Part shown: one piece after another, positions 28,761 through 59,484 of the stretch
Position numbering within the stretch: the stretch's first letter is position 1
Layout: each line of letters starts with the position of its first letter
Assembly (NCBI GenBank): GCA_951406725.2
Contig: OX597814.1
Span: 170,314,001-170,378,000, forward strand
Reading direction: 5' to 3'
Length of the DNA stretch: 64,000 bases
Source of the DNA: Octopus vulgaris
Taxonomy: Eukaryota
The notes under the pieces: generated by a model
The model's input: the letters and a program-made list of their open reading frames with translations, nothing else
Told to the model about the DNA's origin: nothing
Database searches by the model: none
Program-made: the position numbers and the translations under genes

Positions 28761-28802
<42 letters not shown>

Positions 28803-28974
28803 GTTATCGCCATACTAATATGGCATTCTTATAAAAATAAGAAAAAAGCTGTCCGCTTATTAGCTCCATGAGGCCATCGCCTTAAGTTAGCTATTTGATA
28901 CACAAACTGTATCCATATAACCTTCGAACAAGGGAGGTCAGTCGCTCCACACTTAGTTATTTTAATATTTCTAT

Positions 28975-29122
28975 TATATATATATATATGTATATATATG
29001 TATATATGTATTTATATGTATTTATATATATATATATGTGTATATATGTATGTATGTATATGTATGTATATATATGTGTATATATATATGTATGTATATA
29101 TATAAATGTGTGTATATGTATG

Positions 29123-29165
<43 letters not shown>

Positions 29166-29300
29166 ATATATATGTATGTATATGTGTATATATATGTATG
29201 TATATGTATATATATATATGTGTATATATATATATGTATATATATATATGTGTATATATATAAAATATACATATTTATATGTATTTATATTTATAATATG
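28975..29300. repeat. (TA)/(TATG) microsatellite (also 28762-28799, 29515-29590)
   Basis: Directly visible. Confidence 0.95.
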
Positions 29301-29428
29301 TACAAGTGAGTGGACAAATGAAAGAAAAGGGTACTCAACACATTTAGTAGGAGTTACATATATTATTTAAAACAGCTTGATTCAGTTCTGTGCTACTTCA
29401 AGTTTCACAGGACCCTGGCAGGGGATCA

Positions 29429-29492
29429 TTCCAGACGCCTGAAGAAGTCAGGTTCCCATTACGGGGCCTGTGAAACTTGAAGTAGCTTGGAA
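29429..29492 (+). ncRNA. Type I hammerhead ribozyme motif
   Basis: Stem I TTCCAG-ac-GC / GC-TTGGAA; CTGAAGA 29439-29445; stem II CAGGTTCC/GGGGCCTG; GAAAC 29472-29476; ACTTGAAGT stem III; GTA triplet 29482-29484. Confidence 0.7.
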
Positions 29493-29552
29493 CCAAATCG
29501 AACTGTTTTTAATAATATATGTATAGTATATACATATATATTTTATGTATAG

Positions 29553-29586
<34 letters not shown>

Positions 29587-29640
29587 TATATCATCATCAT
29601 CATCATCACGTTAAACGATGATGATGATGATGATGATATA

Positions 29641-29804
29641 TATATTGCAAATAAGAAAATGGAGGAGAACAATAGTTAGTTCATCAACTTTAGGACATTA
29701 AAAATGTTAACTTATTTATTAAACTGAAATAAATAAGTTAACATTTTTAATGTCCTAAAGGTGATGAACCAACTATTGTTCTCTATTTTCTTATTTGCAA
29801 TATA
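29641..29804. repeat. Near-perfect 164-bp palindrome (arms 29641-29720 / 29728-29804)
   Basis: Arms complementary apart from one small indel and about 3 substitutions; 7-nt loop aaactga. Confidence 0.92.
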
Positions 29805-30080
29805 AATTAATGGTAAAATATCTCTTCACCATTACCCATTTAATACACTAGGTAATGTTATTGCATTGCAACAAAAACACTTGTATTAATAATTGGGTAT
29901 TCTACCAACAGTATATTGGATAGATATTATCCCTTAGTGGGTTGGATTCACAACCCCTAACTTTCTTGGAGTTTATATATATAATGGGAAAGTTTACGAA
30001 AATAAACAAAAGACGAAGGCAGGTGGAGTACAAACAAATAAATGTATTAGTATAGCACTCAGGAATAGAAATAGAAAAAG

Positions 30081-30118
30081 TCTTTTACGTTTCGAGCTTA
30101 CGCTCTTCGACAGAAAGA
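30081..30118 (-). ncRNA. Minimal hammerhead-like motif (variant core)
   Basis: Minus: TCTTT-CTGTCGA-A-GAG-cgtaag-CTC-GAAAC-GTA-AAAGA; core has U at conserved A6. Confidence 0.45.
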
Positions 30119-30956
30119 TACACAGAAAAAAACAAGGAGAGAAAAATATATATATAGGTGTGTATTTACATAATTGTGTGTTAGTAAACCAGTTTGAAGG
30201 TGTCAAGTTGGTCAGATGATTAGTCGCAGTGTGTGTGTGTGTGTATATATACATATATATATATTTAGCAACTTTTTATTATATGTACATGAATCTGTTA
30301 TGTACAATTAATCCTCTACCGCAAGGTGTGGTTATACAGCACAAAGAAAACCCAGAATATAAATATTTCTGTCAGAAGAAACAAAAGCATTGTTCCTCCA
30401 GGAGCAATGTTAACTCAGCCATTTCATTCAACTAAGTTTTTATTGTTTGCGTCATCATAACAAGAAATGGAAGCATAATATAATGCTTCTATTTGTTCCT
30501 TTTTTCCTTTTTCTGTAAATAGAAATCTTATTCCACAATCTGCTATGACATAAAACGGTTACTGGAATAACTTACCTTGCTTCTTTACTAGACTTGCAGT
30601 CTTTGTTGGATCTTCATGCAGACCAAACAAAGACTACAAGTATAGCTTAGATTCTATCTTTACTGTTCAAATTATTTTCTAACTTTATTCATCTCTCTCA
30701 CTCTCTCTTTCTCGAAGTTTCATTCTATATTGTCAACCATAACTAAAGAACTTTAAAGATTTAGTGATTGGTTGTTTCTTATATGTATTGTAGAATCCAC
30801 CAAGATAATAAGTAATGCAAGACAACAAATAACAAAAATGATAATCTTTTATACTAAAGCCACAAGGCCTGAAATTTTGGGGGAGAAAACTAGTCAATTA
30901 CACTGATCTGGCAGTATTTCTACAGCTGGATGCCCTTCCTAATGCCAACCACTCTG

Positions 30957-30989
<33 letters not shown>

Positions 30990-31156
30990 GCACAATGGGA
31001 TTCCTTCAGTTTCCGTCTCCCAAATCCACTTAAAAGGCTTTGGTTGGCCCGAGGTTATAGTAGAAGACACTTGCCCAAGGTGCCATGCAATGGGACTGAA
31101 CCCTGAACCATGTGGTTGGGAATCAAGCTTCTTACCATATAGCTACGCCTGCACCT
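30990..31156 (-). mobile_element. SINE group A 5' half; SINE C remnant follows at about 31175-31313
   Basis: ttcagtttccgtc...gaagacacttgcccaagg...gcctgcacct. Confidence 0.8.
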
Positions 31157-31673
31157 AGTTCTACACACTGAATCCAAATTCCACAAAGGTTGACTTAGCT
31201 TTTCATCCTTTCAGGGTTGACAAAATAAGTACCAGTTGAACACCGAGGTCATTGTAATCAACTAATAATACTCTTTCCCTTCCCCTCAATTTTCTTGGCC
31301 TTGTGCCAAAATTTGTGGTAGCATAGTAGTAGCAGTAGTGGTATCGGTGTGAACAAGTGAGTGGTATAATTTGGTTGCAAAAACTCTATTGATGTTCATA
31401 CACCAGTTTTTTTTACTATTCCACCACCACCCCCTTAAATTAAATAATAACTTCCATTAAAAATATATTTTTTAAAAGTTGTTTTAAACATTTTCATACT
31501 GATTATTTTCTTCTGTAAATTTTGTTCCTGATGTTTTAGTTTTATTTTGTATTTTTGTTAATTTATTTTTTTATTCTTTCCGTTGTAATAACTAATTAAT
31601 AAAGCTATTAAATGGGGGGAAAATAAGTAAACAAAGATAAAACAGCAATATACATATATGCATGCGTATATAC

Positions 31674-31723
<50 letters not shown>

Positions 31724-32151
31724 CACGCACATACATATGTATGTATATATGTTCATATATATATAAAAATATATATAATGTTATTGTATAATTTAGCTGT
31801 CTAGGTTATATTGATGTAAAATTTTATTTCTGTTTATGTCTTCTGTATCGACATTGATACAGTTGTATTGAATTGTCTGTAAAAATTTTGTTATATTTCC
31901 TATCAGTACCCTAGTATGACCAGAAACAAGGATTTAAATCAATTTAAATACACCTGATGTCACCGCATGCAGTCTTAATAATGTAGTAACTTTTTTGTCT
32001 CTACGCCCCCTTTAATTAATGATAATGATTTATTTTTAATATTATTTACAGAGATGAAAGATTCTTTTTTCTTTATCGTCAAGTGTCTTATTACTACATT
32101 GAGCACTAGTAGTCTAGTGAATTAAAATTTTATTATTATTGATGTAGCAAA

Positions 32152-32410
32152 AGCTTTGTGAGTAGATTTAGTAGAACAGAAACTGAAGGAAGCCCTTCAT
32201 GTGTGTGTGTGTATGTTTGTATATATGTGTGTGTCTGTTTATCCCTCACTACCATTTGATGACTGGTGTTTGTTTGTTTATGGCCTGCATGACTTAGCAG
32301 CTTGGTAAAAGAGTCTGATAAAATATGTACTGGGGTGAATTTGTTGAGCAAAAAAAAAAATTTAATTTTAGGCAGTACTCCAACATGACTGCATTCCACT
32401 GACTGAAGCA
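32152..32410 (+). mobile_element. SINE A1 3' part (diverged)
   Basis: tttgtgagtagatttagtagaacagaaactgaaggaagcc...gactgaagcaa. Confidence 0.65.
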
Positions 32411-34547
32411 ATATTAGCTAAGAAATGAAGATCCTTCGTGTTAATCCAATATATTACTATGTACATATCTAGGAATAAGATACATAGATTCTTATTAGAG
32501 TTTCATTGGCGATAGTGATTTGTGGTAGCTGTTTCCATTTGCAGTCATGAGATAGTGTTGTTTGTAGCTACAGTGCTTGCCATTGAATATCAGTAGTTGC
32601 ATTGATAATACCAAGCAAAAATGACTGCCTAATATTGGAGCACACATACTTGAATTTTGAAGAAAGTCTCATGGTCTTACCATGAGATTCTTGCAGATGC
32701 AGAGATCAATACCACCATTATCCACTGGATCCCAGAGCCGATGCATACTAGGTTTTTAGGCAAGTAAATTGAAGAATTATAGCAGCAGATTCTTTATGTT
32801 TAACCTTATGTAAGAACATTTGGAAGGAAATTTGCTTGGTAGATTTGATGAATTTGCATATACTATAGAGTGTTACCTTTTTTTAAGCCAGTGCGAGTTT
32901 AACTCTAGCAGTCCGGCTGTGGTGACCCAGTCTGAACTTGATCAGCTACTGTTTACAGTACCAGGGATTCACTGGCTGTAGGTAAATGCCCAAACAAGTA
33001 CAAATAATACCTCTTAACAATGTCTGGGAGCCCATTGTGTGTCCGTTCATCCGTGTCCCAACCCACTTGATGACTGGTTCATATTTCATTGTTGTGGCAT
33101 AAGAGATATAAAGACATGAGTAAGGAGGATGTAAAGTTTGGGAGAAGAAGGATTCTGATGAAATGTTCTTTAGAGTGATTTACTGAGGCTGAGATGCGGA
33201 ATACTTGCATTGAATGAGCTTAGCTGTGGATTGCTGCTATACATGTATAGTTGAACAAACAATTGGTGTTGTTTGACTTTGAGATAATCCTCTTTGAGCA
33301 GATCTGTGATCAATGCTGTTCATATTGTGACTGTCCTGTCTCTTTCATTATTTTAGTTGTAATCTGAGTGTGCTACACTATTCAATGTCTTTTGTTAAGT
33401 GATTTGAAGGAAATTGAGTTATTATTTCAAGCAAGTCATGTGACCATGAATTTTCATGTAGAGGCTTCCCTATTAGTTTGAGTAACCATGTAAGGTTTTA
33501 ACAGAGAAACAGATAGTTTATCTGTGGTTAATTTAGACAGTGAATATAGACTTTCCTATTAGACGTAGTGTACAAAATATATAAATGTGTGTGTAGTAGG
33601 GATTATATGTTGCTTACAAAATATACCAATTATAAGGATAGAATAATGTTTCTGTGGTTAAATATTATTTGTAGGAGAGGCTATGAAAGTCAGTGATAGA
33701 CTGAGATGAAATATAAGAAAGCTTAATTTGTTATAGGCTTTTCTGTTGTAATATCATAATGTTAGTTATAACTAGATAGATAGATACTGGATGGACTGAC
33801 AGTTTCTTTCTCTCACTCTCTCTTCCTTCCTTTCTTTATCTTTCTTTCTTAATGGCATGAGGCCTTGTTGCTAGATGCATTTCTTCAGTTCAGTTCATTA
33901 GGGGGGTACTTTTCATGACAGTTGTATAGCAGCACCATTCTAGTTGTGTGAAGAACTGAAGCTAGAGCATGATGGGTTTTTCTTTTCTCTTTGAAACGAC
34001 TAGAGTTAATATATTTTTATGGGCCAAACAAAAAAAGGCAGATACTGCCATTTTTGATAATAACTTTGCCATATAAAGAGAGAGAGAAGAACATGGAATT
34101 TTGTAAGTGTGCCTAGTGCAGAGCTGTTAGTATTTGCCATGTCATTTTTTGAGTTACTATAAATAATGTGATAAGGACATTTTTGTGTATCATGTCTGAT
34201 TAACTGACATGTATGTCTTTATGAGTCTGTACTTGTTTCTGAAGTCATACAAGTGTGCAAGCTTATGATTGGAAAACAATGCTGCAAGTAAGTAAATGTA
34301 TTTGTATGGATTGACTGATTGTTACATATTTTACCAATCATGAGCATTGTGGTATGAGTTCATATTTTTATATCCGTGTTTGTATTGATGTGTGTCTTTA
34401 TATATGTATTTATGACCTATATTGATATATATGTTTACGTATACCTCTATGTGTATATATATGTATATACAGATGTGTGTGTGTGTGTGTATATATATTA
34501 TATACTTTTCTATGCATATGTATATACACGTTTGCATGTGTGTATGT

Positions 34548-34885
34548 AGGTGTAATTGTATGGTTAAGAACTTTGGTTCCCAATCACTTGGTTTTGGATT
34601 CAGTCCCCAATGCAGAGCACCTAGGGCAAGTGCCTTCCATATAAATCCATGCTCATCAAAGCCTTGTGAGTGGAATTTGTCGACAAAAACTGAAGACGCC
34701 CATTGTACGTTTGTGTGTCTCCTAATCTTGACAAAACGTTATATTTACTTCTGTATAAACATATCTGGCTTTGAAGAAATTACTTTACTTGAAAACAGGA
34801 AGGGTGACCAGCTATAAATGAATATGCTTCAGTAAACTTTGTCTAACCCATGCAAGCCTGAAAAAGTGGATGTTAAATGACAAGG
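34548..34885 (+). mobile_element. SINE A2 (diverged)
   Basis: Group A head; ends aacccatgcaagcctgaaaaagtggatgttaaatg. Confidence 0.7.
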
Positions 34886-34925
<40 letters not shown>

Positions 34926-35095
34926 CACACACACACACACACAAAGTAGGAGGGGTTAGTTCATAGGTGATCTAAACGATTAGGTATGCTAGGTAAGTGC
35001 TGTAACGGATTACTGGAGCTCCAAGGTTGTAGCCGAGGTCATCTTATTGATATATACCATTCTTATTTTTCCGTTTTTTTTTTTTTTTCTTTTTT

Positions 35096-35151
35096 GTCTC
35101 TGATGATGGAATATTCCATACTCGAAGATATTCCAGAAACAGCTGTAAGAT
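35096..35151 (+). ncRNA. Type I hammerhead ribozyme motif with canonical core
   Basis: GTCT-CTGATGA(35100-35106)-TGGAATAT...ATATTCCA-GAAAC(35136-35140)-AGCT-GTA-AGAT; stem III is the palindrome ACAGCTGT. Confidence 0.75.
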
Positions 35152-35270
35152 TTTGAATTTCTTCTTGTAATATTGCATATGACTTGAGATCTTTGCCTTG
35201 CCTTAATGTTTGACATCCTGTTTAACAATTATACATATGTGTGTATATATATATGTATATATGTATATAT

Positions 35271-35966
35271 ATGGAAAGGATAATCAATCGACAAACATCG
35301 GCCTGTAGACATTCATTTATATCTATTAATTGATTACAATCATATGTATAATTGATCCAAATATACGAATGAAATAAGCAAATAAACAAGTAAATAAATA
35401 GATAAATAGATAAAAATAAACGAATAAGCATAAATGAGTAAACAAATGCTAAACCCTTATAGCTATTTCTACCATGGGGTTGCCCAATCTTCCAAGTTTT
35501 CCACATCACGCCACAATGTCTTACCCTCGTTATTTCCCCCAGTAAAATTATAATACATTGTATCTCTCAAGACCTGTGGAAATTACTCCTGGGAGTGACT
35601 TTCTTTACCATAAAATGTAATCCCATGGATTAATGGATATCACCTTGGAATTGACGTTTTTGACCGTTCCTTACTATTTCTATTATTTTATTATTTTACG
35701 TTCCTCACATGTTAGATTCCTAACATTATGGTCCAACCCTCTTTTTTTTCTCTTTTACTCTCCTTTACTTGTTTCAGTCATTTGACTGCAGCCATGCTGG
35801 AGCACCGCCTTTAGTCAAGCAAATCGACCCCGGGACTTATTCTTTGTAAGCCCAGTACTTATTCTATTGGTCTCTTTTGCCGAACCGCTAAGTGAAGGGG
35901 ACGTAAACACACCAGCATCGGTTGTCAAACAATGCTAGAGGGACAAACACAGACACACAAACATAT

Positions 35967-35998
<32 letters not shown>

Positions 35999-36590
35999 GA
36001 CAGGCTTCTTTCAGTTTCCGTCTACCAAATCCACTCACAAGGCTTTGGTCGGCCCGAGGCTATAGCAGAAGACACTTGCCCAAGATGCCACGCAGTGGGA
36101 CTGAACCCGGGACCATGTGGTTGGTTAGCAAGCTACTTACCACACAGCCACCCCTGTCCAATGTTTGTTCAACTTTGTAAAATCCCTGTATGATATGGAA
36201 AACTTGGCAGATTGGGCAACCCCATAGTAGAAACAGCCGTAAGCGTTTAGTATTTGTTCACTAATTTATTCTTATTTGTTTATTTATCTATTTATTTACT
36301 TGTTTATTTGCTTATTTCATTGGTTTATTTGGATCATTTATACATATGAGTGTACATATAATTGAATGTTAACTGGCTGATGTTTGTCGATTGTTTGTTC
36401 TCTCCATTTTCTTATTTGCCTTATAAATTCTGGGTAAATTTCTGTTTTACCCCTACCCGTACCTAGTATTCAATTGCGATATTGCCCTGCAATAGTAAGC
36501 ACTTGGATATGAATATGTAGATATACATCCAGTAGTATATTGGATATTTAATATCCCTTAGATGGTTTATTAACCTCTAACTGATACAGA
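35271..36590. mobile_element. Fold-back element: diverged 220-240 bp inverted arms (35271-35508 / 36191-36407), SINE inserted in spacer; Penelope-like by inference
   Basis: tggggttgcccaatcttccaagttttcca vs tggaaaacttggcagattgggcaacccca etc.; 36393-36583 homologous to 29775-29963. Confidence 0.6.
35745..36155 (-). mobile_element. SINE A1, full length
   Basis: Near-identical to 43324 and 11378 copies. Confidence 0.92.
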
Positions 36591-36929
36591 CATATATGTG
36601 TGTGTGTATATATATATATATATTATAGCAGAATGCCTAGCATTGCCCAGGAGGGAAAGTGTCTATAAATAATCCAGAATTGCTTTTAATGAAGGCAGGT
36701 TTTAATAGAACATTTCTAGATTCCTCTTGAAAGGTTAACTTTTATGTAAGACTGCTATAAATGTATTTTCCAATACATTTATAGCAGTCTAGTGTCTTAA
36801 CATGCTGGGTCTTGAATAGGTACTCAAAATTTATGGTATATTTTGTAATGCAATGGTGTAAATTACATAAATCTAAACCAGAAATGTTAAGTAAATGTGA
36901 AAAGTTTTATTTCATGTGAAACTTGTTAT

Positions 36930-37110
36930 CTTTTATTGTGTTTTAGTCATTGGGGTGTGGCCATGCTGGGGCACCACCTTGGGTTTTGTCAAACAAATTG
37001 ACCTCAGTATTTATTTATCTATTCAGTCTCTTTTGCCAGACTGTCAATTTACAGGGACATAAGCAAACCAACAATGGTTGTCAAGGTATAGAAGGGGGAC
37101 AAACAAACAA

Positions 37111-37150
<40 letters not shown>

Positions 37151-37420
37151 GTCTGATACAGCCCCTCAGCTTACCAGCTCTGGTCAAACTGTCCAACCCA
37201 TGCCAGCTTGGACAACAGACATTAACTGATGATGATGATGATAATATATGATGGGCTTCTTTCAGTTTCTGTTTATCAAATTCACTCAGAAAGTTTCGAT
37301 TGGCCCAGGGCTATATAGTTGGTAAAAGACACTTGCCCAAGATACCATGTAGTGGGACTGAACCCAATCCCACATGTTTGGGAAGCAAACTTCTTGACCA
37401 CACAGCCACATTTACACCTA
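36930..37420 (-). mobile_element. Diverged SINE A1 with a family B tail fragment (about 37155-37243, + strand) inserted at its microsatellite
   Basis: A1 tail and head flank gtccaacccatgccagcttgg...(GAT)n. Confidence 0.7.
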
Positions 37421-38467
37421 TTATTATGGAAGATAATATATTATTTTTCATTATTACATATTATCTTTTTGTCACATAAAAAAAAAGCATCCAGTTCATC
37501 CTGTAAAGTGGTTGGTATTAGGAAGAGGCATCCGCCTGTAAAAATCATGCCAAAACAGACAATGGAACTTGGTAGTTTCCTGGCTTGCCAACTCCTGTTA
37601 AACTTTCCAACCCATGCCAGTCAGTATAGAAGATGGATGTTAAATGGTGACAATGATGATTATCTTGTATTCTTTAATTCTCAGTACAATTTGAAAAATG
37701 TGTAGAAACTGGGTGATAAGGAGGTAAATAACATATGGAAATTAAGTCATTCTCTTATAATTTGTAGACACCAGAATGCCCAAATGAGAGCCACTCATCC
37801 AAATATTGGAAGTGCAATACATGCAGTTATAAGGAATGAATTGTATTCAGTTCCAGCCTATATGATATTAGATCCTTACCCATCATAGTCTTGGCATTTC
37901 TGAGCATTATAGTCCAGTACATTAGGATATTCAATGGTTTCTGGTTTTAGCAACATGAGTATAGCTACCAGAGACTGTGGGCTCTTCCAGCACTTGAGCA
38001 CTTTATATAAAATTAGCTCTTTAAGATGCCCTCCAGCCACTATCAATGTTTTGTCCACGGGATCTATTGTTTGACTAAGCAAAGTTTATGTGTTCTAGAA
38101 ATCGAAGTCTTCTAAATTGAATTGGTCTTCTCTTGGTTTGTGTGTGTGTGTGTAAACGAATGATTTGCTACTGGTCAGATACATGCCACTGCCCACTCAA
38201 ATATTTCTCTTAATTCATTTTTGTTAAATTATGCAAATCACTTAGGCCATAAATGTGTTCTGCTCTTTTTCGTATAAGTCTGAGTCCTTTGGCTACTGGA
38301 GATATGGGCAGACAATTGTGCTGATGATGACTAATTGCACCAGAAATATGTGTCCATGACTGTCTTCTTATTCTCCAGGAATTAAGCCTGTCCTTTTCCT
38401 TAATGGCAAATCAACTTTAGAGAATCTTGAAACTATTTCCCCTTCTCAAATGGAGCAGGTTTTAATT

Positions 38468-38850
38468 CATCATCATCATCATCATCATTTAATGTCCGTT
38501 GTCCATGCTGGCATGGATTGGATGGTTTAACTGGGTTGGCATGCTGGAAGGCTATGTCAGGCTCCAGTCCAATTTGGCATGGTTTTCTACATCTGAATGT
38601 CCTTTCTAACGCCAACAACTCCAAGAGTGTAATGGGTGCTTTTACATGCCACTGGTATGGATGCCATTTGCGTGATACCGATATCTGCCATGACTGCAAT
38701 TTTACTTGGCTTGATGGGTCTTCTTCTCAAGCACATCATAATGCCAAAGGTCTTGGTCATTGCCTCCGTGAGGCCCAGCACTCGAAAGGAACTCAGTCAC
38801 CTTACCTCCGTGTGGCCTAACACTCGAAAGGAACTCAGCCATTTTGCCAT
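38468..38850 (-). mobile_element. RTE-LINE ORF end plus 3' UTR (family B) with 42-bp tandem duplication
   Basis: Minus reads LGLTEAMT...EKTHQAK* then B-family UTR and (GAT)n; cactcgaaaggaactcag repeated. Confidence 0.8.
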
Positions 38851-39759: not shown

Positions 39760-39826
<67 letters not shown>

Positions 39827-41481: not shown

Positions 41482-42566
41482 CCCCTTTCGTTACCAAACC
41501 GCCCAAAGTCGCCTGAAAAAAAATTTGGTTAATGTGACCAAACCACCCAAACCCGCCCGAATTTACCTATTCATATTTAAATGAGAATATCAGAGCAAAT
41601 CTCTTTAGTACATTCGTGAAAACACGTGATAATGCTTCGTAAACAATTCATCTACAGTTTTGTACAACGATCGACATGCAATTTTAATTCCCTGAATTTT
41701 GGGAGATTTTTTTCCACATTTTTTTGGGCATCGATTTTTCTTCAACTTTGAAAATGGATAGGAGTTTCATGTTATCAAACATTGATTCCGAATTGGAAAA
41801 TTTGTGAAACAAATACTGGGTACTGTTGTGGATTTAGTTTTTATACAGGGAAACTAATGTTAGTCAGCATGGCTTAGGGTACGATGTGGTTTGGAAGTTA
41901 TTGTTTGAAGCGATCAATGCGGAAACAAACTTACGCAGAATGTAAACAAAACACAAAATGGGGGATCAAATTTCGGAAAATTTGTGAAGCAAATACTGGG
42001 TACTGCGTGGATTTAGTTTTTATACAGGGAAAATAATGTTAGTCAGCATGGCCTAGGGAACGATGTGGTCTGGAATTTATCACTTCCATACCATAACCAG
42101 GGCCGTATATTATTTCTTGACCGATTTCTTTAGTTCGGTCAAACTTACGGTGGATTCCAGTATTTCACTTTATTCCACCTTTATGGTACACCTGTTGTGC
42201 ATTAAATTCAACTGATGATATAGTGATGTGCACAATTCTTCTTTATCAAAATTTTGTTGCATACCTATTTGAATATTAGCTGATGATTCATTTTCTATGG
42301 TGATGTTTAAACAAAATTTTTATATTTTTACCTTTTGCTCAATTTACCTGGATTTACCTGTAATTAAAGTCACATTCTGAGACAAAAGTTATGCAATAGA
42401 ATTGATTAAGAACCCTTTCTTTAATTATCTTCCAAATATCACAATATGTTGATAAGTAAAAAAGTTACAGTTATTTAATGAAACAAGCCTAGATTCATGA
42501 TTATTTTAGAATTTAATTGAAACTCATGAGGGGTGTATTTTGGTCAGAAATATAGTAACAAAAGGG
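41482..42566. mobile_element. Non-autonomous piggyBac-like element, 1085 bp
   Basis: TTAA-CCCCTTTCGTTAC ... GTAACAAAAGGG-TTAA; subterminal accaaaccRcccaaa repeats; internal 106-bp direct repeat 41795-41901 / 41975-42080; no long ORF. Confidence 0.85.
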
Positions 42567-45500: not shown

Positions 45501-45554
45501 TGTATAAATTTGCTTCTCAATTTACACAATATATATTGTACCTCTCACTCTCTC

Positions 45555-46277: not shown

Positions 46278-46982
46278 GTTGGCATTAGGAAAGGTATCCA
46301 GCCATAGAAACCATGCCAAAACAGACATGGAACCTTGACAGCCCTTCAGCTGGTTAGCTCCTGTCAAACCATCCAACCCATGCCAGCATGGAAAACGGTC
46401 ATTAAATAGTGATGATGATGGTTGGGTGGCAAGCTTGTTAACCACATAACCCTTGCCTGTATCTCGTCTGTGTGTGTAAATGAAAATTCAGCAAACAAAA
46501 AAAAAACAAGTTATATATATTTATCAAATTTTTAGTGAAAATAGCTGCCAAGAATATGCCTCTTCTGAGATGTTGGCTTGTCTTTCGCTTGGAATTATTC
46601 TGTTGGTTTTCTTTCTCTTTCCTTCTTGTTGATGATGTTTTCTTAATATATCCACGTATATTAATGTTGATTGTAATTACTGGAAAATTATATAACTAAT
46701 ATAGATTGCTGGTGCCTGTATCAATTTACGGTTTGGCTTCTTAATCAACTTCTGTATGACTTCATTAACACTGTCTTTACAATTAACTTATTTGTTTGTG
46801 ATTTTCCAACAAAATTGAATCATAGCTTTCAATTCATACCTATGTTACAAGCCTTAGAGTTTCTTCTGTTGTGTGTATATACATCTGTATGTATACATAT
46901 GTATATGTGTGTGTGTGTGTGTATGTATGTATATATATATATATATATATATACTTTATTTAAAAGCAGCAGAAAATTCAAC

Positions 46983-47030
46983 AAAACCTGTTACTCTGAG
47001 TTTCACGTTCCCGTTCGTCGGACAGTTTTT
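46983..47030 (-). ncRNA. Type I hammerhead-like motif in a ~120-bp module between (TA)n tracts
   Basis: Minus: CTGT-CCGACGA-ACG-ggaa-CGT-GAAAC-TCAGA-GTA-ACAG; U4 replaced by C. Confidence 0.6.
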
Positions 47031-47071
47031 GCTAGAATTACTCTACCACTGGTATTTGAGTACTCTTTTCC

Positions 47072-47113
<42 letters not shown>

Positions 47114-49052: not shown

Positions 49053-49720
49053 TAGGTGCAGGCATGGTACCTTGGGTGTCTTCTACTATAGCCCCAGCCC
49101 AACCAAATTCTTGTGAGTGGTTCTGGTTGGTGGAAACCGAAAGAAACCTGCTGTGTATATATATTTATATATTTATATGTATCAAGTGAAAATCTAAATC
49201 GATCAACATCAATGGAAATTGCAGCTGTGATACCAGTGCCGGTGGTACGTAAGAGAACCATCCGAACGTGGCCGTTTGCCAGCCTCGTCTGGCATGTAAA
49301 AAACACCCACTACACTCACGGAGTGGTTGGCGTTAGGAAGGGCATCCAGCCATAGAAACTCTGCCAGATCAGACTGGGCCTGGTGCAGCCTTCTGGCTTC
49401 CCAGACCCCAGTTGAACCGTCCAACGCATGCTAGCATGGAAAGCGGACTCTAAACGATGATGATGATGATGATGTATATGTGTTACTTTCTCCTTGTCTT
49501 GACCTTATATGAGAGTTGTAAACAAGTGTTACTGTTAGGTGGGTGGTGTCCTGTTCCAATTTCCAGCCTCTGGTCATGAAGAAATATTAACTTACTTGGA
49601 AACAAGTGAGGGTTGGTGACAGGAAGGGCATCTAGCTATAGAAAATCCGCCTCAACAAAAATTCCATTTAACCCATGCAAACATGGGATTGTGTACATTA
49701 AACCAATGCTGATGATGACA
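49053..49720 (+). mobile_element. SINE A2 with a young family B insert (49183-49474) in its internal microsatellite
   Basis: A head before, A2 body and tail after; insert ends (GAT)n. Confidence 0.8.
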
Positions 49721-50280
49721 GCAATGACATATGGAATTGGTTTTTCAGTCGCATATCTTACAATATATAAACTTGGTGCTTCAGAAGTATGATTAACTAA
49801 TTTCCAAATATATTAGACTAAACATACCTAGGAAGGAGAGAGAGAGAGTGTCCTAAAATAATATAATCATGTAAAAAGTCTGGTGATAGGTTTTTACAAT
49901 GTTTGCTGCATCACAAAGAGAGTAATGGAGAAAAAAAAAAAATGTTTGTGTGTGTAGAACAGTTATCACCTTAGACCTCTAACTTCATCCTCATCTTGTG
50001 ATATTTATGTCTCTTGTCTACTGCTTTTGTGGTATATGTCATGTTTGGAATTGAAACATAATTCATAGTTTGCAAGAGGTAGGTGTGTGTGTGTGTGTGT
50101 GGTTGGGGTACTTCAGTTAAATGAAAAAAAAAAATTTAACGTCTTTCTATATTTATTTAGACTTGAATTGCAGCGTCATATTATATTATGTTATCTAATA
50201 TATATTTATGTGAATAAATATATATACCTATATCATAGATATACAATGCTGGAGTATATACATACACACACACACGTGTA

Positions 50281-50329
<49 letters not shown>

Positions 50330-51384
50330 ATACATACATACACACGTGTGTGTATATGAATGTAGCAGTTCTAGACTGAAGGTAAAACTGTCTTATACAC
50401 ATCCATTCAAAGTTGATGATTCACTCCAGCATTGTATATCTATATACTAAACACTGAAGAGTTGAGTTAAGATGATTATATAGTGATTCTACAAGAATTA
50501 TGTAATCCTGGGAGTAATTTACTGAAATATGTGTATGTTTCATAAGGCATAGAATACCATACAGCTTTTCTGTATTTTATTAATACTATGCATGCACATG
50601 CATGTGCGCGCACACACACACACAATAGCTTTTATTATATTGAAGACACTACTATACTTAAGTTCAATCATTTTTATTAAGGGTTTTTCATATATATTTT
50701 TTAGTCCTTCATATTTAGTATGGAACATTTTTCAAGCTTTTTTGGCCATATCATCTGAATGAAGTGGTGATAATGATGCATTATTTCTCTGTTTTGTCAT
50801 ATGTAAGCTAAGGGTTATCGAATGATGTAACTGAAATCATTATTGGCAGATTTGAAATTGTTTAATTGCTAACTTCTTGAAGCTTCTATGATTTATTTCA
50901 CATGTTGATTTTTGGTTTTTCCTATCAACAAAACTTCTGTAGCTAATTTTTTTCAGTTTTCGTAGAATTTTGAGTTATGCTGCTGATTAAAAAGTTCTTG
51001 TTGCTGTTTCAGTAAATGATGAACATTACAACTCGTGCTTTGGTCTCAACTAGAATTTTAGACATTATTACTGCTAACTGGAGAGTAAAAATAAATCAAA
51101 AGTTATTCCTCAGGCATTATATCATTAGTAAGACATTGCAAGTTATTTCTGGAAATTGGTAAACTTCTACTACAAAAGGAAGTGAATTTTGTGATATTCA
51201 TATGTGCTGGAAAAGTATATCCTCATAAAAATTGAGCTATTGATTTTTTTTACGATGTTGTGGATTGTTTTGATATTTATCCTTGGGTCACTTCTGATCA
51301 AATAGAACATGATCAGTTGTGTTCCTGTTGTGACCCTCTCTTTGGAAGAATTTTCTTTTGTTTAATAAGACACAAAAGAAGTTT

Positions 51385-51742
51385 GTTTCCTGATCGCATA
51401 GTCCTATTACATGGCAATTTGGGCAAGTGTTTTCTTTTATAGTCTTGGGTTGATGAAAGTCTTGTGAGTGGATTTGGTAGGTGGAAGCTGGAAGAAACAC
51501 ATTGTTTGTGTGTTTATTTGTGTTTTGTTTTGATATTATGTGATACAGTGTCATACATACAATATCATTCATTCCCCAGTATTCTGTGAAAACATGTCTC
51601 GCCATAGAAAAATATTAACTTGGAAACAGGTGAGGGTTGGCAACAAGTAAGGGTATCTGGCTGTAGAAAGTCTGTCTCAAATAAACCTTATCCATCCCAT
51701 TCAAGCATGGAAACGTGGATGTTAAATGATGATGATGATGAC
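51385..51742 (+). mobile_element. SINE A2
   Basis: ttgggcaagtg...cttggaaacaggtgagggttggc...agcatggaaacgtggatgttaaatgatgatg. Confidence 0.75.
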
Positions 51743-52479
51743 AACATAACTTTAAGTTCATTATCTAAAATGGATAGTGAACTCTTCTTTGTGGTAGTTA
51801 ATGGATTTGGAGTAAATTTGGCTGCTATTTCTAATTCGTTGAGTGATTGAGTAGAAAACTCTCTCATCATTCTCTTGATGACAAATGAGAATTTTAAACT
51901 GACTGTAAGTTTGGCTTATCCAAAAACTTGGCCAATTTTCGGACAGACAGCTGTTTCTTATCCAACACATACTATTTCTCTCCTCTATCTATCTCTTTAT
52001 TTCTCTTTTACTCTCATTGAAACATTCACATAAGTACACCATTGAATCTGCATTTCAATCCATAACAGAGAACTGTCAGAGATATGAATACAGCTATTTC
52101 ATTATTTAACTTACACACACACACACAACACATATGCACACAAATTCTTTTTATTATCAGACAAGGCATTTAGTCCATATAATCCTACCAGCAGTAGTAT
52201 AAACATACCTGGTCTGCCAATTATTTACAAAAAAATCAATAAAAGCACACCTGACCTCAAAATTATAGGAAATCAATCCAATTTGTATACAACAGAACTC
52301 TGTCTTCAGATAATCTATTGAAGCATTGTAGATATAATCAGATAGCCACTGTCAGTTCTTGTGAAAATGTTACAATGAAGTTTTGAAAGCGTGTGTGATG
52401 GTTTGATCAGAAAGAAGGAGCTATGCCATGATCTTTGCACACTCTTCAAGATGTGGGAAGTTAATATAATTGGTTTCAG

Positions 52480-52740
52480 TTTAGACATGTGTAAGCCATT
52501 GTAGGAAGGATGGAAATTTTTGAGAGGTAGGGTTGTCCGAATGATAAGTGTGGGCTTGGGAGGTGGAGGCATGATGGGTGATGGGAGGCAAAGCAAGTCT
52601 ATTAAGTCGACCAAGGTGAAGGTACCATGTTGTTAGACAGTTAGAGGAGAAAAGTTGATTGCAATAGGAGCAATGAGGAAACGGTGTCTGTGGACAGAGA
52701 TTGTAATGATGTCATGAATGAATCTTTGCTAATCTTTTCC
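52480..52740 (-). mobile_element. Possible decayed L2/CR1-group LINE C-terminus
   Basis: Minus LQSLSTDTVSSLLLL...HHPSCLHLP resembles LQPLSHRR.V.SL.L...HP..V.LP motif. Confidence 0.3.
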
Positions 52741-53269
52741 TAAATATTTCAGGTATGGTCAAGGCTGTTTGTGTTTTGGTAGCAAAAAGCTGTGTACCAA
52801 TCATTTTGAGTAGAATTTCCTTGCAAATCTTAGTTGATCTTTGTAGAGAATCATCAAATAATCAGAACTGAAATATTTTCTGGGTTCAATTAAGAAGACT
52901 AGTCTTTAGTTTCCATGTTAAGCTATATTATGTAAATTAGTGTAGTGTGTGCATATGTGTCATTACATTATATGAATAAAATACATTCCGTCAGTTCTAC
53001 TAGCTGTGCAGGCAGAGAAATTGAATAAAGTGAACAGAGGTTGATTGGAACTAGATAGACAGTACATGTGCAGAAGCAAAAATCTGTTTCATGTTTATTG
53101 TCTTGCAGATACCATATTTAACAATGGTTACTTGGCTTGTTCAAAATAGCCACCGAATTTCCTTCCAATCACAGTCTTAAAATATAAAATAAAAGGTCAT
53201 ATTGAATAATGTAGTCCCTGAGTACACTATAACTGAAACCCTGAAAACAAGTTAAAATGATCGTAAACT

Positions 53270-53720
53270 TTTATAGATATGAGGAGCATTTTTTTTTGCA
53301 AAGAGAATTGGAATGGAAGTCAAGAAAAGTGCTACATCTGGTCGGTGCTAATGTATGGATGTGAGTTTTGGATGATAAGCAAAGTCATGGAGAAGAGACT
53401 CAAAGCTGCAGAAATATGGTTTTATAGAAAAATGCTTGGAATCTCGTGGGTACAGAAGGTGATGAATGTGGAAGTGTTGAAAATGAAAGTGAAGAGACAA
53501 TTGATGGATACTATCAGAGAGAGACAGTGGTGATTTGATGGTCATTTTCTCAGAGAGGTTGATGGAATGGAGCAGTACATGGTGGGAAGAAGAGCGAGAG
53601 GAAGGCAGAGAATGAAGATGTTCAACTGGATGAAGAAGAGAATGAACATTCTCTTCAAGAGACAGAAATAAATGGGGGAGAAACAAGCTATGATTCATCA
53701 ACGGCATGAATATGCCATGA

Positions 53721-53756
<36 letters not shown>
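53270..53756 (+). mobile_element. RTE (BovB-like) LINE C-terminus ending in (GA)n
   Basis: ORF 53279-53533 CYIWSVLMYGCEFW...RLKAAEIWFYRKMLGISW...NVEVL; later GRRARGRQR. Confidence 0.82.
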
Positions 53757-53758
<2 letters not shown>

Positions 53759-53807
53759 GGAATGTCTTTGACATAGTAGGTTTACTAGATTATAGCTAAC
53801 CTTTGGT

Positions 53808-53990
53808 TAAATAGTGTTGGACTCATTATAAAATTGTGGTTTTGATTCCTGGACTGGGCAACATGTTGTGTTCTTGAGCAAAACACTTCATTTCATGTTT
53901 CTCCAGTCCACTCAGTTGGTAAAAATGAGTAATCTTGCAATGGAACTGCATCCCGTCCAGGGATTCATGGGGAAACTGGCCCTATGCTCC
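53808..53990 (+). mobile_element. SINE group D (diverged; partial copies also about 39390-39485, 41225-41330)
   Basis: tgttgtgttcttgagcaaaacacttcatttcatg...ccagtccactcag. Confidence 0.65.
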
Positions 53991-54094
53991 TAACGTAGTA
54001 ATGTGATCTAACCACTTGGTTAAATTGTAATAGCAAACTGAGTTATGTAATTACTTCTTGGAAAGCCAGTGAGGATGTTTGTGAAACAAAATCC

Positions 54095-54870
54095 TGGGCT
54101 TGGTTGAAAAAGGGACAATTGAAAAAAAGAAACAGGGGACCTTATTATATAGCTCCAGATCAAGCATTGCAAATGAATAAGTTATGAAAATATGTGTATG
54201 GCGTGAAAGTGCATGTAGAGTATGGAATTTGGAATGAAACAACACACATTGTTGCAGAATGCCACAGGTTGGTCCTGAGAGAGTATAAGAAATGGAGATG
54301 TGATCAAGTTTTACACTGGCAGCTTTGTCAAAAACAGGCATTGAAGCAGGAAATAGATGGTACAGTCATCAGGTAAAAATTAGTGCTTGAGTCAGAAACA
54401 TGCAAGATTATGTGGGATTTTCTCTTTCAAACTGATAAGAAGCTGGAATATAACAAGCCAGATATTACAGCAATAGACAAAGGAAATCGAATTTGCTTAC
54501 TGATTGATCCATCATGTCCATTTGATACCAGTATTATGAAGAAAGCAAATGAGTTGAAAAAAAGCAAGCCGTTAAAATGTAAGGGTGCAAAGATTTGGAA
54601 CATGAAATCTATAAAGGTTGTGCTATTGATAACTGGTACATTAGGGACTCTGAATGATGAAATAGACAAATGGATAACGGAGATTGGAATGTCCTGTTGG
54701 ATTTCTACAGAACGTTTGCCTCTTAAGAATTGGACAGAGGATCAGAAGGGTTTTGAGTATTTGATGGCTTGTTGCAATCATGTAGATATCTAAGGTTACA
54801 GGGTGTAACATGCATCCCACATAAATTCTATCAGGAATAAGACCAATCCTGAATCATGATGGTAATAATT
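54095..54870 (+). mobile_element. R4/Dong-type LINE 3' part: CCHC knuckle remnant and restriction-like endonuclease
   Basis: ETTHIVAEC..L...EYK...LHWQL then ORF 54383-54793 KIMWDF..QTDK....NKPDI...LLID...PFD...KIW....V..ITGTLG. Confidence 0.85.
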
Positions 54871-54924
54871 CTGATGATGATGATTATGATGACAGTGATG
54901 ATTTTTTTTTCTTTTCCTTGTTGC

Positions 54925-55501
54925 GTATAAGGTCAGCAGTTTTCAGGGGATGGAACAAGTCGATTACATTGCCCTACTCCAAATCCTTCCCAGTATTTGA
55001 CTAGTACTTTATTTTATTGAACCCTGAAAGACAAAGTTGATCTTAATGCCTTAGTGGAATTTGAACTTAGAATGTAAAGAGCCAGAAGAAATACCACTAA
55101 GCATTTTGTCCATTGTGCTAATGATTCTGCCAGCTTGCCACCTCAGTAATAATGGTAATAACCCTTTCTACTATAGGCACATGGCTTGAAATGTTGCGGG
55201 GGGGGGGGACTAGACGATTACATCAACCCCAGTATTCAGTTGGTGTTTAATCTTCTTGACCTCCCCAAAATGTTGAAAGGCAAAGTTGACCTCAGCAGAA
55301 CACAAGATGGATGAAATGCCATGAAGCATTTTCTTTGATTTGCTAATGATTCTCTCTGCTCATCGCCTCAAAAATAATACTAATAATAATAACAATAATA
55401 AATCTCTAATTTTGACAAAAGGCCAGCTATTTTGAGGGGAGAGGAAGTCGATTACATTGCCCCCCCCCCGTCCCAATACTCAACTGGTACTTATTTTATT
55501 G
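54925..55501 (-). mobile_element. Head-to-tail array of three SINE C copies separated by (AAT)n
   Basis: Copies about 54925-55143, 55160-55368, 55400-55501, each with cgattacat...cc(c)ag/at and, in two, aaagttga...gctaatgattct. Confidence 0.7.
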
Positions 55502-56082
55502 TTCGTGAATGATGTATGATAATAAAAGTAATAAAAAAATATTTAAAATGTTGCTAGCTTCTTGTGATGACAGTTTTATTTAATTTTTTTTTTCTTTTGT
55601 CAGTTTAAACATTCTTCAAGTTAGGAATAAAGAAAAAATGTGTAGAGTGGGGAAGAGTGTAGGTGAGAATTTTCGACTTGCCAGCCAATCTATACTTTCT
55701 GAATTACAGGAGATGAATATTTGCAATTAATTTTGATTAGGTTTCATTAGCTATCGATTTAATCACATTATCCAAGAAGTTGCATGCACCAGAATGACCT
55801 TGCTTCTATCCTGCCGATACCTGTACCCATAGTCAACTTATTCACATGGGAAGGCAAGCACATTAGCATGAATACAAAGAAATATAAAGAAAGAGTTTAA
55901 TGAATCTAAATAACAGCTACATCATGTTTGCAGCTGTTCAATATCTTAAAAATAAAGCAATTCCTGTTGTTTGCTACTTCAGCCTCTCCCCTCCTTATAC
56001 ACCATATTGCCCTACTTTACATTTTATATATATATATATATACATACATACATACACACACACACACATATGTATATATATG

Positions 56083-56670
56083 TCATCATTATTTAACATC
56101 CATTGTCCATGCTGGTATAGGTTGGACACTTTGACCAGGGCTGGCAAGCTGTAAGGCTGCACCAGACTCCAGTCTGATTTGGCATGATTTCTACAGCTGA
56201 ATGCCCTTCCTAATGCCAACCATTCTGAGAGTGTAATGAGTGCTTTTATGTGCCAGTGGCACAGGTGCCATTTGTATGACATCAGTATCTGCCAAGACTG
56301 TGATTTTACTTGGCTTGATGGGTCTTCTTCTGAAGCATGACATAGTGCCTAGGTCTTGGTCAAAAGGAGCTTTTCACGTGCCACTGGTATCAGCCACTTT
56401 GCCTCCGTAAGGCCCAATGCTCGAAAGAAGCTTTTTACATACCAGTTACATGACATCAGCATTTGCCACGACTATGTTTTTACCTAGCTTCTCAAGCACT
56501 GCATATTGCCAAAGGTCCCAGTCACTAGTCATTGCCTCTCTGAGGCTCAAATTTCAAAGATCATGCTTCGCTACCTCAACCCATGCCTTCCTAGGTCTGC
56601 CTCTGTCACAGGTTCTCTCCTCAGTTAGAGATCGGCACTTCTTGTCCATATGACCATACCAGTGCAGTCA
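56083..56670 (-). mobile_element. RTE-LINE C-terminus continuous with family B 3' UTR
   Basis: Minus LHWYGH...RGRPRKAWVEVAKHDL..L.LREAMTSD.DLWQYAVLEK then B-family sequence and (GAT)n. Confidence 0.85.
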
Positions 56671-57028
56671 GCTCTGTGGACAGCCTCCTGTCAAGCTGTC
56701 TAACCCATATCAGCAAGGAAAAACCGACGTTGAATAATTATGAATGATTTTTTTAACCAACATCGTATGTTACTAGAGAGGTGTAAATGCCTTGTGAGTA
56801 TAGTCAGTATCTTTATGGATAAAATGGAAATGGACCAACTGAACTAGTTCTAATTCTTGTATTGAGATTTCATCTGCAATTGTGCACATTCTCTAGCTGT
56901 CCATGAACTTGTGCTTGAAAACCCACTTTTTACTTTGAGCTTAAGTAATTTACATATACATAATGTATTCATGGCAGTTAGTTTAAAAAACAGCGTTATG
57001 GTTTTTTGGTTACAATTTACTTAATTAA

Positions 57029-57315
57029 CCCGTCTATGACTGACCTTGATTCCATATTACAAAGTTCCTCTTTTTAAAGTAATTAAAATTAAAACCTTCC
57101 ATCAAAATTACATTTTAATTTATGTTTCAAACCCCAGTACAGCAATCACTGAGTTACTATTTTCTTCATCATTGCCAAAATTAATTGAAAAAAAAATTTG
57201 CATCGTCAAATTCTGTCTAACCCATGCCAACATGAAAAAAGTGAACATTAAACTGATGATGATGAAAGCCAGTGTATTTAGTGTATTTCAAAAGAAATAT
57301 GGTAACAAAAAAAGG
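57029..57315. mobile_element. piggyBac-like MITE (F-related) with an RTE-type tail fragment inserted at about 57198-57265
   Basis: TTAA-CCC ... ggtaacaaaaaaaGG-TTAA; inner aacccatgccaacatg...gatgatg. Confidence 0.65.
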
Positions 57316-57561
57316 TTAATGCTTACAGTTTACTCTGAACATTTTCTCATGGCTGCCCATGCATTATGAATACATATACACACTCATTCTGACTGTGCTA
57401 TCTAAAATTTATTCCATTTATTTTACTGTTGTTTACAATATTATTTTGGAGCACCATTGGTCTGAGAGAAGAAATGGGTAGATGGGGTCTCAGATGTAGT
57501 GTGCACGAGATGATACTGTGCTATTGAAAAAAAAACCTGCGGAAGAGGAAGACACAGAAAT

Positions 57562-57935
57562 AAGTTAGTTAGTTAGTTAGTTAGTTAATTTGGCTCAAAA
57601 GCAAATAGCAAGGCCATGTAGGGGGACATGGAGTTAAGTACAGGGTGGTGTTCATGTAAAGAGTTTAGGCCACTTGAGGTCCAGGGAGGCTTTGAACAAA
57701 GCGGTCGTAGGCATCTTCACCATCTCGTCTGGCAGCTTGTTCCACGGATCCGCAACCCGGACGGAGAAAGCTCCTCTCCTTCGATTGAGATGAAATCGTC
57801 GCAGGTAGAGCTTTTCGGAATGACCCCGCAGCCGACGCTCTGGAGCAGGAGTGAAGAACAGCTCTTTCGAGAGGTTACACTTTCCGCTTATGATGTTGTG
57901 GGCGAGAATGAGATCACCACGGCGAATGAGGACTG
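57562..57935 (-). mobile_element. Second CR1-group LINE 3' fragment with (TAAC)n tail
   Basis: ORF 57652-57984 RRGDLI...LRGHSEKL...RRGAFSVRV..PWNKLP..V.......FK..LD. Confidence 0.88.
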
Positions 57936-58369
57936 ATATCAGGACAGTGTAGTTCATGAAAGAGATAAGAAAACAATGTAGCAAGTGATGAGATTTTGTG
58001 CTTTGGAAAACCTATCCGACCCAATCTTGCATAAAAACGCAATGAAAAGTAATGATGATAATCTATTCACCCAAAAAACAAAATTAGTTATTTCTTTCTG
58101 TCTATTAACACATTGTGTTGCAGTTGTTGCTTGGCCTTCATTTCAGCTCTGATCAAGCGGACCTATGATCAAAGGCTTTCCTGCTGTAACCCTCCCATTG
58201 ATTTTTTTGTTTGTTTGTTGTTTCTTTTTGGTGACTACCATGTACTTTTTCCTTGGGGGAGTGGGGGGCGTGGCTAGACGGCTGGCTGGAATTTAAAATA
58301 GCTTATGGTTTTACAGAAGTTAGGTTGCTATTTCTCTCAGTGGCTCTCTCATAGTAATTCTTGTAGTTG

Positions 58370-58620
58370 TGTTTAGCCCCAGATGAGCCCTGATCCAGCA
58401 GGTCTAATGAGAAACCTGCTAGCTATGATTGTCTTGTCTGCTTTCTTTCTTTCTTTTTTTTTTTTTTTTTTTTTTTCTCAGACATGGTGCTTTTAAGACT
58501 ACATTATACAATATTTCCTTCTCTTTTTTTTTTAAGAATGGTAAGAGTGTGATTTGAGGCAGATTTGTATACTGTTTGTAGCAGGTCAAATTACTATGTA
58601 AAGGCTCTTCACTTAGCTTA
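58370..58620 (+). repeat. Unclassified interspersed repeat G (other pieces about 3210-3375, 4565-4650, 7815-7930, 19515-19650, 33285-33480, 44220-44300, 53120-53260, 58135-58200, 62745-62820)
   Basis: Recurrent motifs ccctgat(c)aagcagacctatgatcaaaggcattcc and gatttggctgctatttctagcagg. Confidence 0.6.
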
Positions 58621-59127
58621 TTGTTGTTGCTGATATTGCTGATTTTGTTTGTTTATTTGTAGCTTGTTATTTATTATGCTTCGGTATTCTTCCTGCCAGA
58701 CAACCTATTCTCAGTGAGGCATATCAAAATATCTTACAACTGACTGCAACATAGTTAATTTCAAGCTTCGTCTGCCATGCAGATATGCATGTATAATATT
58801 TCAAGAAGAGTTGTGGGTATAGATATTCTGCTTTGCAGGTTTAAATCATCTTTAGATTAGTCCATGAAAGTCTTTAACCTTTCACTGACATTTTATCTTA
58901 ACGATCTACAAGCTTTCTATTTTATTTCTTTATTTATCCATTTTTTCTTTTTGTTGTTGTTTCAATTGTCTTGACAGGAAAGAAATGATTTTCTATATCT
59001 ATAAGCAAAACAACAACAACAGAACAATGTTTTAGAATAAATATATATGCAGTTATATACAATATGTGTAATATACTAACATTTGGTGTCTAAAGATAAG
59101 CCACAGGAGCTTTGTTAACCGAAAGTG

Positions 59128-59176
59128 AGCATCATACAACTAGTTTCACTTTGCTTAAGATTCATCAGGGATTGCT
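59128..59176 (-). ncRNA. Hammerhead-like motif with intact core but weak stems
   Basis: Minus: AGCAATCC-CTGATGA-atcttaagcaaagt-GAAAC-TAGTT-GTA-TGATGCT. Confidence 0.4.
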
Positions 59177-59484
59177 TCAATTGCTTCTACATAATTCCTT
59201 GGTGGCTACCATTATGTGAATCTCTTTATACAGATAATTGTTTACATTGTTTTCTAAGATATATTATTCTAAGCTTCAGCAGTTAAGAGGTGAGCCGAGC
59301 TGTCCCTGATTAAACTAAAGCAAGGCAAAACTAGTCACATTAGCATAATCTTTACTCAGATCAGTGGAAGTTGCTGTGGTTTACAGGCTGGTTAGATTTT
59401 CAAAAGGAGATTAAATGAATATTTAGTATATGTATATTCTTGTAATATTATGTAATACAAATATACTAATATATATATATATAT

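Follow-up and report, generated by a model that had tools for sequence, protein, structure and literature searches.

Hammerhead ribozymes in the ends of Penelope-like elements (PLEs), solo truncated copies of these ends, inverted arms, tails and the targeting of (TA)n have already been published (PMC4209133, PMC8557442, PMC3846280). PLE insertions show heavy 5' truncation and frequently have an inverted copy next to them and a tail on one side only; a preference for (TA)n is known in several clades (PMC8557442, PMC3846280). The minimal hammerheads (min-HHR) of metazoan PLEs mostly stand alone, coming from truncated elements, and their cleavage in vitro is weak and limited to dimers (Cervera and de la Pena 2014, PMC4209133), the role of PLE hammerheads being still open (PMC8557442). 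In octopus, a Hydra element that carries a hammerhead and prefers (TA)n, Hydra-1_Obim, has been published from Octopus bimaculoides (Craig et al. 2021, PMC8557442). For Octopus vulgaris, a repeat annotation of 2026 reports 31 recently active Penelope-like families, with a main text that is silent on ribozymes (PMC13282606). Here, we analyze five hammerhead-like motifs, M1 to M5, in a stretch of 64,000 nucleotides of O. vulgaris (assembly GCA_951406725.2, contig OX597814.1, positions 170,314,001 to 170,378,000, forward strand), called the window below, with positions counted from its first letter. The initial annotation of the window had proposed a possible uncharacterised ribozyme-bearing retroelement system; given the anatomy already published in the works cited above, the system is a known one and matters little as such. 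M1 to M4 are, with high confidence, 5'-truncated 3' ends of four unrelated endonuclease-bearing PLE families (one Neptune-type and three Hydra-type) in (TA)n, likely left by a reverse transcriptase (RT) primed at nicked TA and stopping after 90-200 bases, and the short hammerhead modules in TA tracts here would be PLE debris missed by Rfam.

The hammerhead order of core, stem II, GAAAC and GUA is present at all five places listed in the initial annotation, where each motif was named by the low end of its stem I. The complete order (stem I, CUGANGA, stem II, GAAA, palindromic helix III, NUH, stem I) is observed in M1 to M4, being weak in M5. The M1 body (29427-29512, + strand), from an old Hydra-type family, has its core CTGAAGA at 29439-29445, GAAAC at 29472-29476 and GTA at 29482-29484, and stands head to head with an inverted arm (29309-29416, - strand) that comprises the tail and the 3' half of the hammerhead and is 80% identical to family copy L250. 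M2 (29985-30146, - strand), of Neptune type, contains a minimal hammerhead at 30118-30081 with ACGT as helix III and the core CTGTCGA at 30113-30107, whose single mismatch is U6; this copy has no inverted arm. The M3 body (35038-35232, + strand) shows a canonical core, CTGATGA, at 35100-35106, GAAAC at 35136-35140, a palindromic helix III and GTA at 35145-35147, and its inverted tail arm (34945-35034, - strand) is 88% identical to the tail of L109. The M4 body (46950-47038, - strand) also has one core mismatch, C4, in CCGACGA at 47021-47015, followed by GAAAC at 47004-47000 and GTA at 46994-46992, and is accompanied by an inverted tail fragment of 33 nt (47037-47069, + strand) with 100% identity to the tail of L294. 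Finally, M5 (59128-59176, - strand; core CTGATGA at 59168) has a mismatch at the stem I base and a stem II of just 3 bp. As first described, M1 to M4 are flanked by (TA)n or (CA)n runs, such as the (TA)n tract at the M1 3' end (29515-29591), the (TA)n(CA)n tract adjoining the M3 inverted arm (34888-34944) and the (TA)n tracts that enclose M4 (46922-46953 and 47074-47113). M5 is without such flanks, and the five modules have no flank in common (best cross-match E 0.14). With a scored hammerhead descriptor that tolerates one core mismatch, M1 to M4 score at least 9, four observed motifs against a mean of 0.05 and a maximum of 1 in 40 local dinucleotide shuffles of the window, whereas M5 scores 7, a level that shuffles reach 0.4 times per window. 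A stricter descriptor keeps three of the five (M2 to M4), compared with 0.1-0.6 in 30 shuffles.

A search of the genome (2.8 Gb, 227 contigs) reveals that M1 to M4 are dispersed multicopy families. A first-look DNA search gave 154 candidates for M1, 2531 for M2, 2472 for M3, 286 for M4 and a single one for M5, and exact patterns matched 2255 times for M2, 1838 for M4 and 245 for M3, the reversed control being 0 for each. The best copies are approximately 97% identical for M2, mostly 92-100% for M4, approximately 84% for M3 and 80-87% for M1. Within each family the 3' point is fixed, mostly into (TA)n, either at the end of the body or after an extra tail of ~60-120 nt, whereas the 5' starts vary; the hammerhead lies 41-105 nt from the 3' end, and most copies are shorter than 300 nt and have no open reading frame (ORF). 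Among 110 loci sampled regardless of their 3' flank and holding a hammerhead copy (30 for M4, 30 for M2, 29 for M3 and 21 for M1), (TA)3 is found at the 3' end in 28/30, 24/30, 20/29 and 8/21, respectively, and an inverted upstream partner in 37 (18 for M4, 12 for M2, 4 for M3 and 3 for M1). Among the window copies, tail-bearing inverted arms are found for M1, M3 and M4. Truncation is visible for M4 in the 31 matches of a pattern placed 130 nt upstream, compared with the 1838 at the hammerhead, a rough ratio because the patterns differ. An apparently fixed 5' end of M4, at the stem I base, disappeared in a pattern-drawn sample and corresponds to query bias. Also, contigs from four runs presumed to be RNA cover M2, these contigs not showing ends, strand or level.

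This arrangement resembles the min-HHR (PMC4209133) in the type I order, the short stem I, the extra base after A9, the palindromic 15.2-16.2, the thousands of solo copies, the opposite-strand pairs 100-700 bp apart and the predicted dimer activity. The pseudo-long terminal repeat (pLTR) insertions of Penelope from Adineta vaga (Arkhipova et al. 2013, PMC3846280) are alike in having an inverted terminal copy placed head to head, a tail that one arm may carry and palindromic junctions; however, the Adineta tail measures 31 nt, shorter than the tails here, and the targets here are microsatellites, in which duplications are unreadable.

With PLE proteins as queries, tblastn gave no match anywhere in the window, so that the initial statement that no RT or GIY-YIG ORF is attached stands for the window itself. 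However, it does not hold for the families: extending the copies of M1 to M4 at other places of the genome reached, for each family, a GIY-YIG ORF on the same strand. For M2, two of the 30 loci chosen by upstream sequence (L229 and L233) reach the ORF, and a comparison of both shows 85% identity, unbroken over 1.7 kb, from the RT thumb through a CX4CxxC linker and the GIY-YIG domain to the end of the M2 module. The L229 translation presents the linker and a GIY-YIG domain with the two Cys and two His of CCHH, which is the Neptune layout, and the linker of L233 has a deletion. The Neptune clade (PMC8557442) is thus like M2 in the RT thumb, the linker, the CCHH GIY-YIG and the (TA)n insertion, the family-wide U6 of the M2 hammerhead being a difference from Neptune-clade PLEs; Neptune itself is paraphyletic (PMC8557442). 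For M4, locus L332 contains RT, endonuclease, a 3' untranslated region (UTR) of ~1.2 kb and the module, plus an inverted copy upstream, and the independent loci L307 and L309 align continuously to it from the endonuclease to the M4 module (85% and 89%). The M4-linked RT is 42% identical to the full-length relatives P0001 and P0003, and its motifs resemble published Hydra rows. Where the Hydra clade has DKT instead of DKG, L332 reads DKI. L332, the sole long copy, starts after the RWK region, and its upstream copy is inverted only, with no direct pLTR seen; no complete element of the M1 to M4 families was recovered.

In the case of M3, two walking steps reached a decayed endonuclease ~0.9 kb above the module, and 9 of the 20 loci chosen by this upstream endonuclease remnant carry M3 downstream on the same strand, endonuclease and RT thumb being found in linked copies of the family. 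The ORF of this family (L199, L201, L205 and L198) also has a long, Thr/Asn-rich insert of low complexity between the RT thumb and the endonuclease, and a similar feature, Asn-rich inserts, is reported for Adineta Penelope (PMC3846280). For M1, an endonuclease remnant lies upstream in L257, and L366 joins RT, endonuclease and the M1 module. Moreover, 10 of 30 loci chosen by the endonuclease carry the body or the tail of M1 (in 6 it lies downstream in sense, in 4 upstream and inverted), and a profile of the body matches downstream in 3/30 endonuclease loci compared with 0/140 control loci. Pfam gave no match for two ORF fragments. These links bear out the initial suggestion of several families of PLE termini that land in TA microsatellites, as far as M1 to M4 are concerned.

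A CxCX5C linker precedes GIY-YIG in L307 of M4, L169 and L198 of M3 and the M1-linked L346, and the CxxC and CxH motifs are present in the M1, M3 and M4 endonucleases; because linker and motifs define the Hydra clade, these three families would be of Hydra type. As described (PMC8557442), this clade shares with them the C-terminal GIY-YIG, the CxCX5C linker and the CxxC and CxH around conserved E and N, as well as the (TA)n preference, the sense hammerhead near the 3' end, the palindromic helix III and the 5'-truncated inverted 5' copy. M4 has the same helix I and helix III stem as the published Hydra-2_aMil, and the helix III stems of M1 and M3 occur in published Hydra hammerheads (PMC8557442). 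Nonetheless, the M1, M3 and M4 hammerheads are unlike the one listed for Hydra-1_oBim, the 3' UTRs are longer here (~0.8-1.2 kb) than in the published Hydra-clade PLEs, and CUGAnGA is found in all 26 Hydra-clade rows of file S2 of PMC8557442, whereas M4 shows C4, and most M1 copies G9 or an additional base. Neither four DNA strings nor two peptides taken from the families were found in the supplement of PMC8557442, where line breaks could hide a match. Being absent from this supplement, the four families may be unnamed, in a comparison that excludes Repbase and Dfam. Also, among the titles returned on PLE and octopus hammerheads and on core variants, none concerns these families or U6 and C4 cores in PLEs.

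However, several observations weigh against this assignment of M1 to M4. For none of the four families was an intact ORF found, every linked ORF being broken, and the intact Neptune-type ORFs of 781 amino acids (aa) in this genome belong to a different family. The Hydra and Neptune labels follow from motifs and not from an RT tree. For M1, the linked copies are old (70-80% identical), 20 of the 30 endonuclease loci are without M1 within 1.5 kb, and only 8/21 of its copies end in TA. The Rfam scan suggested at the outset gave 79 matches in the window at E<=1, none of them a hammerhead, the best being miRNA models on microsatellites. At the family level, M3 meets the consensus core while M1, M2 and M4 depart from it, so cleavage is not assured. 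Finally, the covariation expected of the stems is nearly absent within families, with 4 cells showing two-sided pair changes (3, 1, 0 and 0 for M1 to M4) vs 148 with broken pairs (41, 22, 49 and 36), although the stems do recur between families and phyla, including published Hydra elements. The copies thus lend the stems no covariation support, which at the level of copies is one of the outcomes that the initial annotation had named as refuting. The missing covariation is as expected of dead copies, and the stubs are likely inert. Concerning folding, none of the five motifs as monomers folds better than its own shuffles (z -1.2 to +1.8), and the helix III of all five forms a self-duplex but not a monomer hairpin; with helix III as a self-duplex, unremarkable Rfam and monomer folding results are expected.

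Two further observations concern this other family with intact ORFs, unrelated to M1 to M4, to which most results of a GIY-YIG family search belonged. L182 and L183 (G000:C16) represent the Neptune-type family with intact 781-aa RT and GIY-YIG frames at many loci, an upstream ORF of ~350 aa and a 3' end that appears to hold a motif of U3-A8 type. Matches to M4, an M2-like sequence and M0 (a fifth family, see below) beside the 781-aa ORFs and L019 lie beyond TA tracts and were discarded as separate insertions.

By analogy with the PLE literature, the GIY-YIG domain of the element would nick (TA)n and the RT would copy the RNA from its 3' end, most copies aborting within 90-200 nt. Then, the hammerhead would survive in the stubs merely through its distance from the 3' end, and a second short copy would be joined head to head. 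In full-length tandem transcripts, the self-complementary helix III may bring two hammerheads together, which would then cleave the precursor, whereas solo stubs would probably be inert and decay neutrally.

The family cores suggest differences in how well such dimers would cut. In loci chosen by upstream sequence only, C4 is present in 29/30 M4 copies and U6 in 27 of the 28 M2 copies that could be parsed (2/30 could not), with A6 in none; among the first 100 exact M2 matches listed, 99 have U6 and one C6. In the M1 family, 36/43 have G9 or an extra core base, and the canonical A9 of the window copy is a minority state (4/43), whereas M3 is canonical, with CTGATGA in 36 of the 46 copies shown. 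The core variant described for the min-HHR is U3-A8, and neither U6 nor C4 was found in supplement file 2 of PMC4209133. In another hammerhead, A6C sharply lowers cleavage in Mg2+ (PMC7151607), and the literature found on core variants gave no cleavage data for U6 or C4; judging from sequence, both cores are likely slow cutting. The most frequent motif of the control stretches described below (5/28) belongs to a sister family of M2 (L380, L395, L401, L403 and L405), which has a GUU site and CCGACGA or CTGACGA as its core; because this family also shows CCGACGA, C4 occurs in more than one lineage. M2 and M4 have spread to thousands of near-identical copies with an altered core and every stem kept, and we consider it a tentative idea, with the odds against it, that their dimers may not cut and the fold is retained for a different function. 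If so, PLE retrotransposition would need no ribozyme cleavage, the fold could, for example, be a signal by which the RT of the element binds or is primed, and a natural test panel would be at hand in this genome, whose many families hold some 10^5 motifs. In any case, families fixed for U6 or C4 beside the canonical M3 offer a ready comparison on the role of the PLE hammerhead.

An alternative, also raised in the initial annotation, is that the modules are short non-autonomous elements, either retrozymes or PLE-derived units resembling short interspersed elements, which PLE enzymes would mobilize in trans via small or circular RNAs. The short, ORF-less state of most copies would agree with it, and an origin of retrozymes from PLE ends has been proposed (10.64898/2026.07.22.740005). 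Metazoan non-LTR retrozymes (PMC7229834; 10.64898/2026.07.22.740005) are also alike in having type I hammerheads, non-coding DNA and a relation to PLEs. However, retrozymes are tandem units of 150-450 bp without ORF, whereas M1 to M4 are dispersed ends of ORF-bearing elements that lack two defining features, tandem hammerhead units (none in the window) and a non-coding unit of fixed length. Their variable 5' ends are continuous and reach endonuclease or RT in all four families, the apparent fixed 5' end of M4 was not sustained, and a second direct hammerhead copy appears in only 4 of the 110 sampled loci (3/30 for M4, 1/30 for M2, 0/29 for M3 and 0/21 for M1). This makes a non-autonomous origin very improbable, although a genuine tandem hammerhead repeat, inserted in a PLE-like shape, is present in this genome. 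This repeat (L369:2050-4880; G000:C1, ~20.002-20.005 Mb) has a 359-bp unit with one canonical hammerhead each, is unrelated to M1 to M4, and lies between TA tracts as five direct and two inverted units that meet head to head, with arms of unequal length. It is retrozyme-like, with an insertion shape of PLE type, and a 25-mer from it has 37 exact matches, several in arrays.

Chance matching within AT-rich repetitive DNA is, taken for all five motifs, very improbable. For M1 to M4 it is not tenable, considering their excess over the shuffles, their multicopy state and their siting like published PLE hammerheads. For M5 alone chance is plausible: its score is within reach of shuffled sequence, it folds worse than 195 of 200 shuffles, and no relative was found by DNA search, with three patterns or by nhmmer over the 1.67 Mb of fetched loci. 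Nonetheless, its spacing equals that of published Hydra hammerheads, a (TA)4 run lies 92 nt downstream, and control DNA holds five motifs scoring from 7 to below 8 compared with ~1.1 in shuffles. For M5, a decayed relic of a PLE end is somewhat more likely than chance. Thus, of the five motifs first reported, all were found and four stand firmly, M5 being the weak one. The search for M5 relatives also turned up other hammerhead families with unrelated flanks; L430-L447 include at least two further families with an ACTA-N-TAGT helix III, one of them as a head-to-head pair.

The genome background was estimated from a control of 40 evenly placed 10-kb stretches (400 kb) with the same descriptor and shuffles. 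These stretches contain 28 motifs scoring at least 8 compared with 1.4 in shuffles; seven come from one tandem array, leaving 21 without it. A (TA)4 run occurs within 150 nt downstream of 13/28 control motifs vs 17% of 2400 background positions. Extrapolated roughly, the genome would hold 1.4-1.9 x 10^5 motifs by our own descriptor, approximately one per 15-20 kb, which implies far more than the 4,000-9,000 of coelacanth and Xenopus (PMC4209133), the descriptor used here being looser. A local cluster of ribozymes retained by the host for RNA processing, to which four above-chance motifs within 18 kb and the canonical window copies of M1 and M3 could point, is highly improbable, because the density equals the background (4 in 64 kb vs 28 in 400 kb, or 21 without the array), the motifs lie on both strands, belong to families unrelated to each other and show the same divergence as their siblings, and the canonical A9 of M1 is a minority state in its family.

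The window has other features as well. The stub of the fifth family, M0 (28798-28985; body 28953-28798 on the - strand, tail end 28951-28985 on the + strand), is 89% identical to L035 and lies between (TA)n tracts (28763-28799 and 28975-29302) upstream of M1; it stops ~25 nt before the hammerhead, and the longer copies L035 and L384 carry a core of U3-A8 type. Two AT-rich motifs at 42505 (+) and 43831 (+) appear with a looser descriptor and score 10 only if GAAAU and an A-U closure of helix III are allowed. A frame of 138 aa (54377-54793, + strand), without Pfam match, presumably resembles the restriction-like endonuclease domain of non-LTR retrotransposons. On the - strand, a remnant of an RT of the long interspersed element type extends over two frames at 27465-28651 (RVT_1, E 0.0014). 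Finally, a 156-bp palindrome (29645-29800, 89%) without hammerhead core adjoins a TA run and is probably another head-to-head stub.

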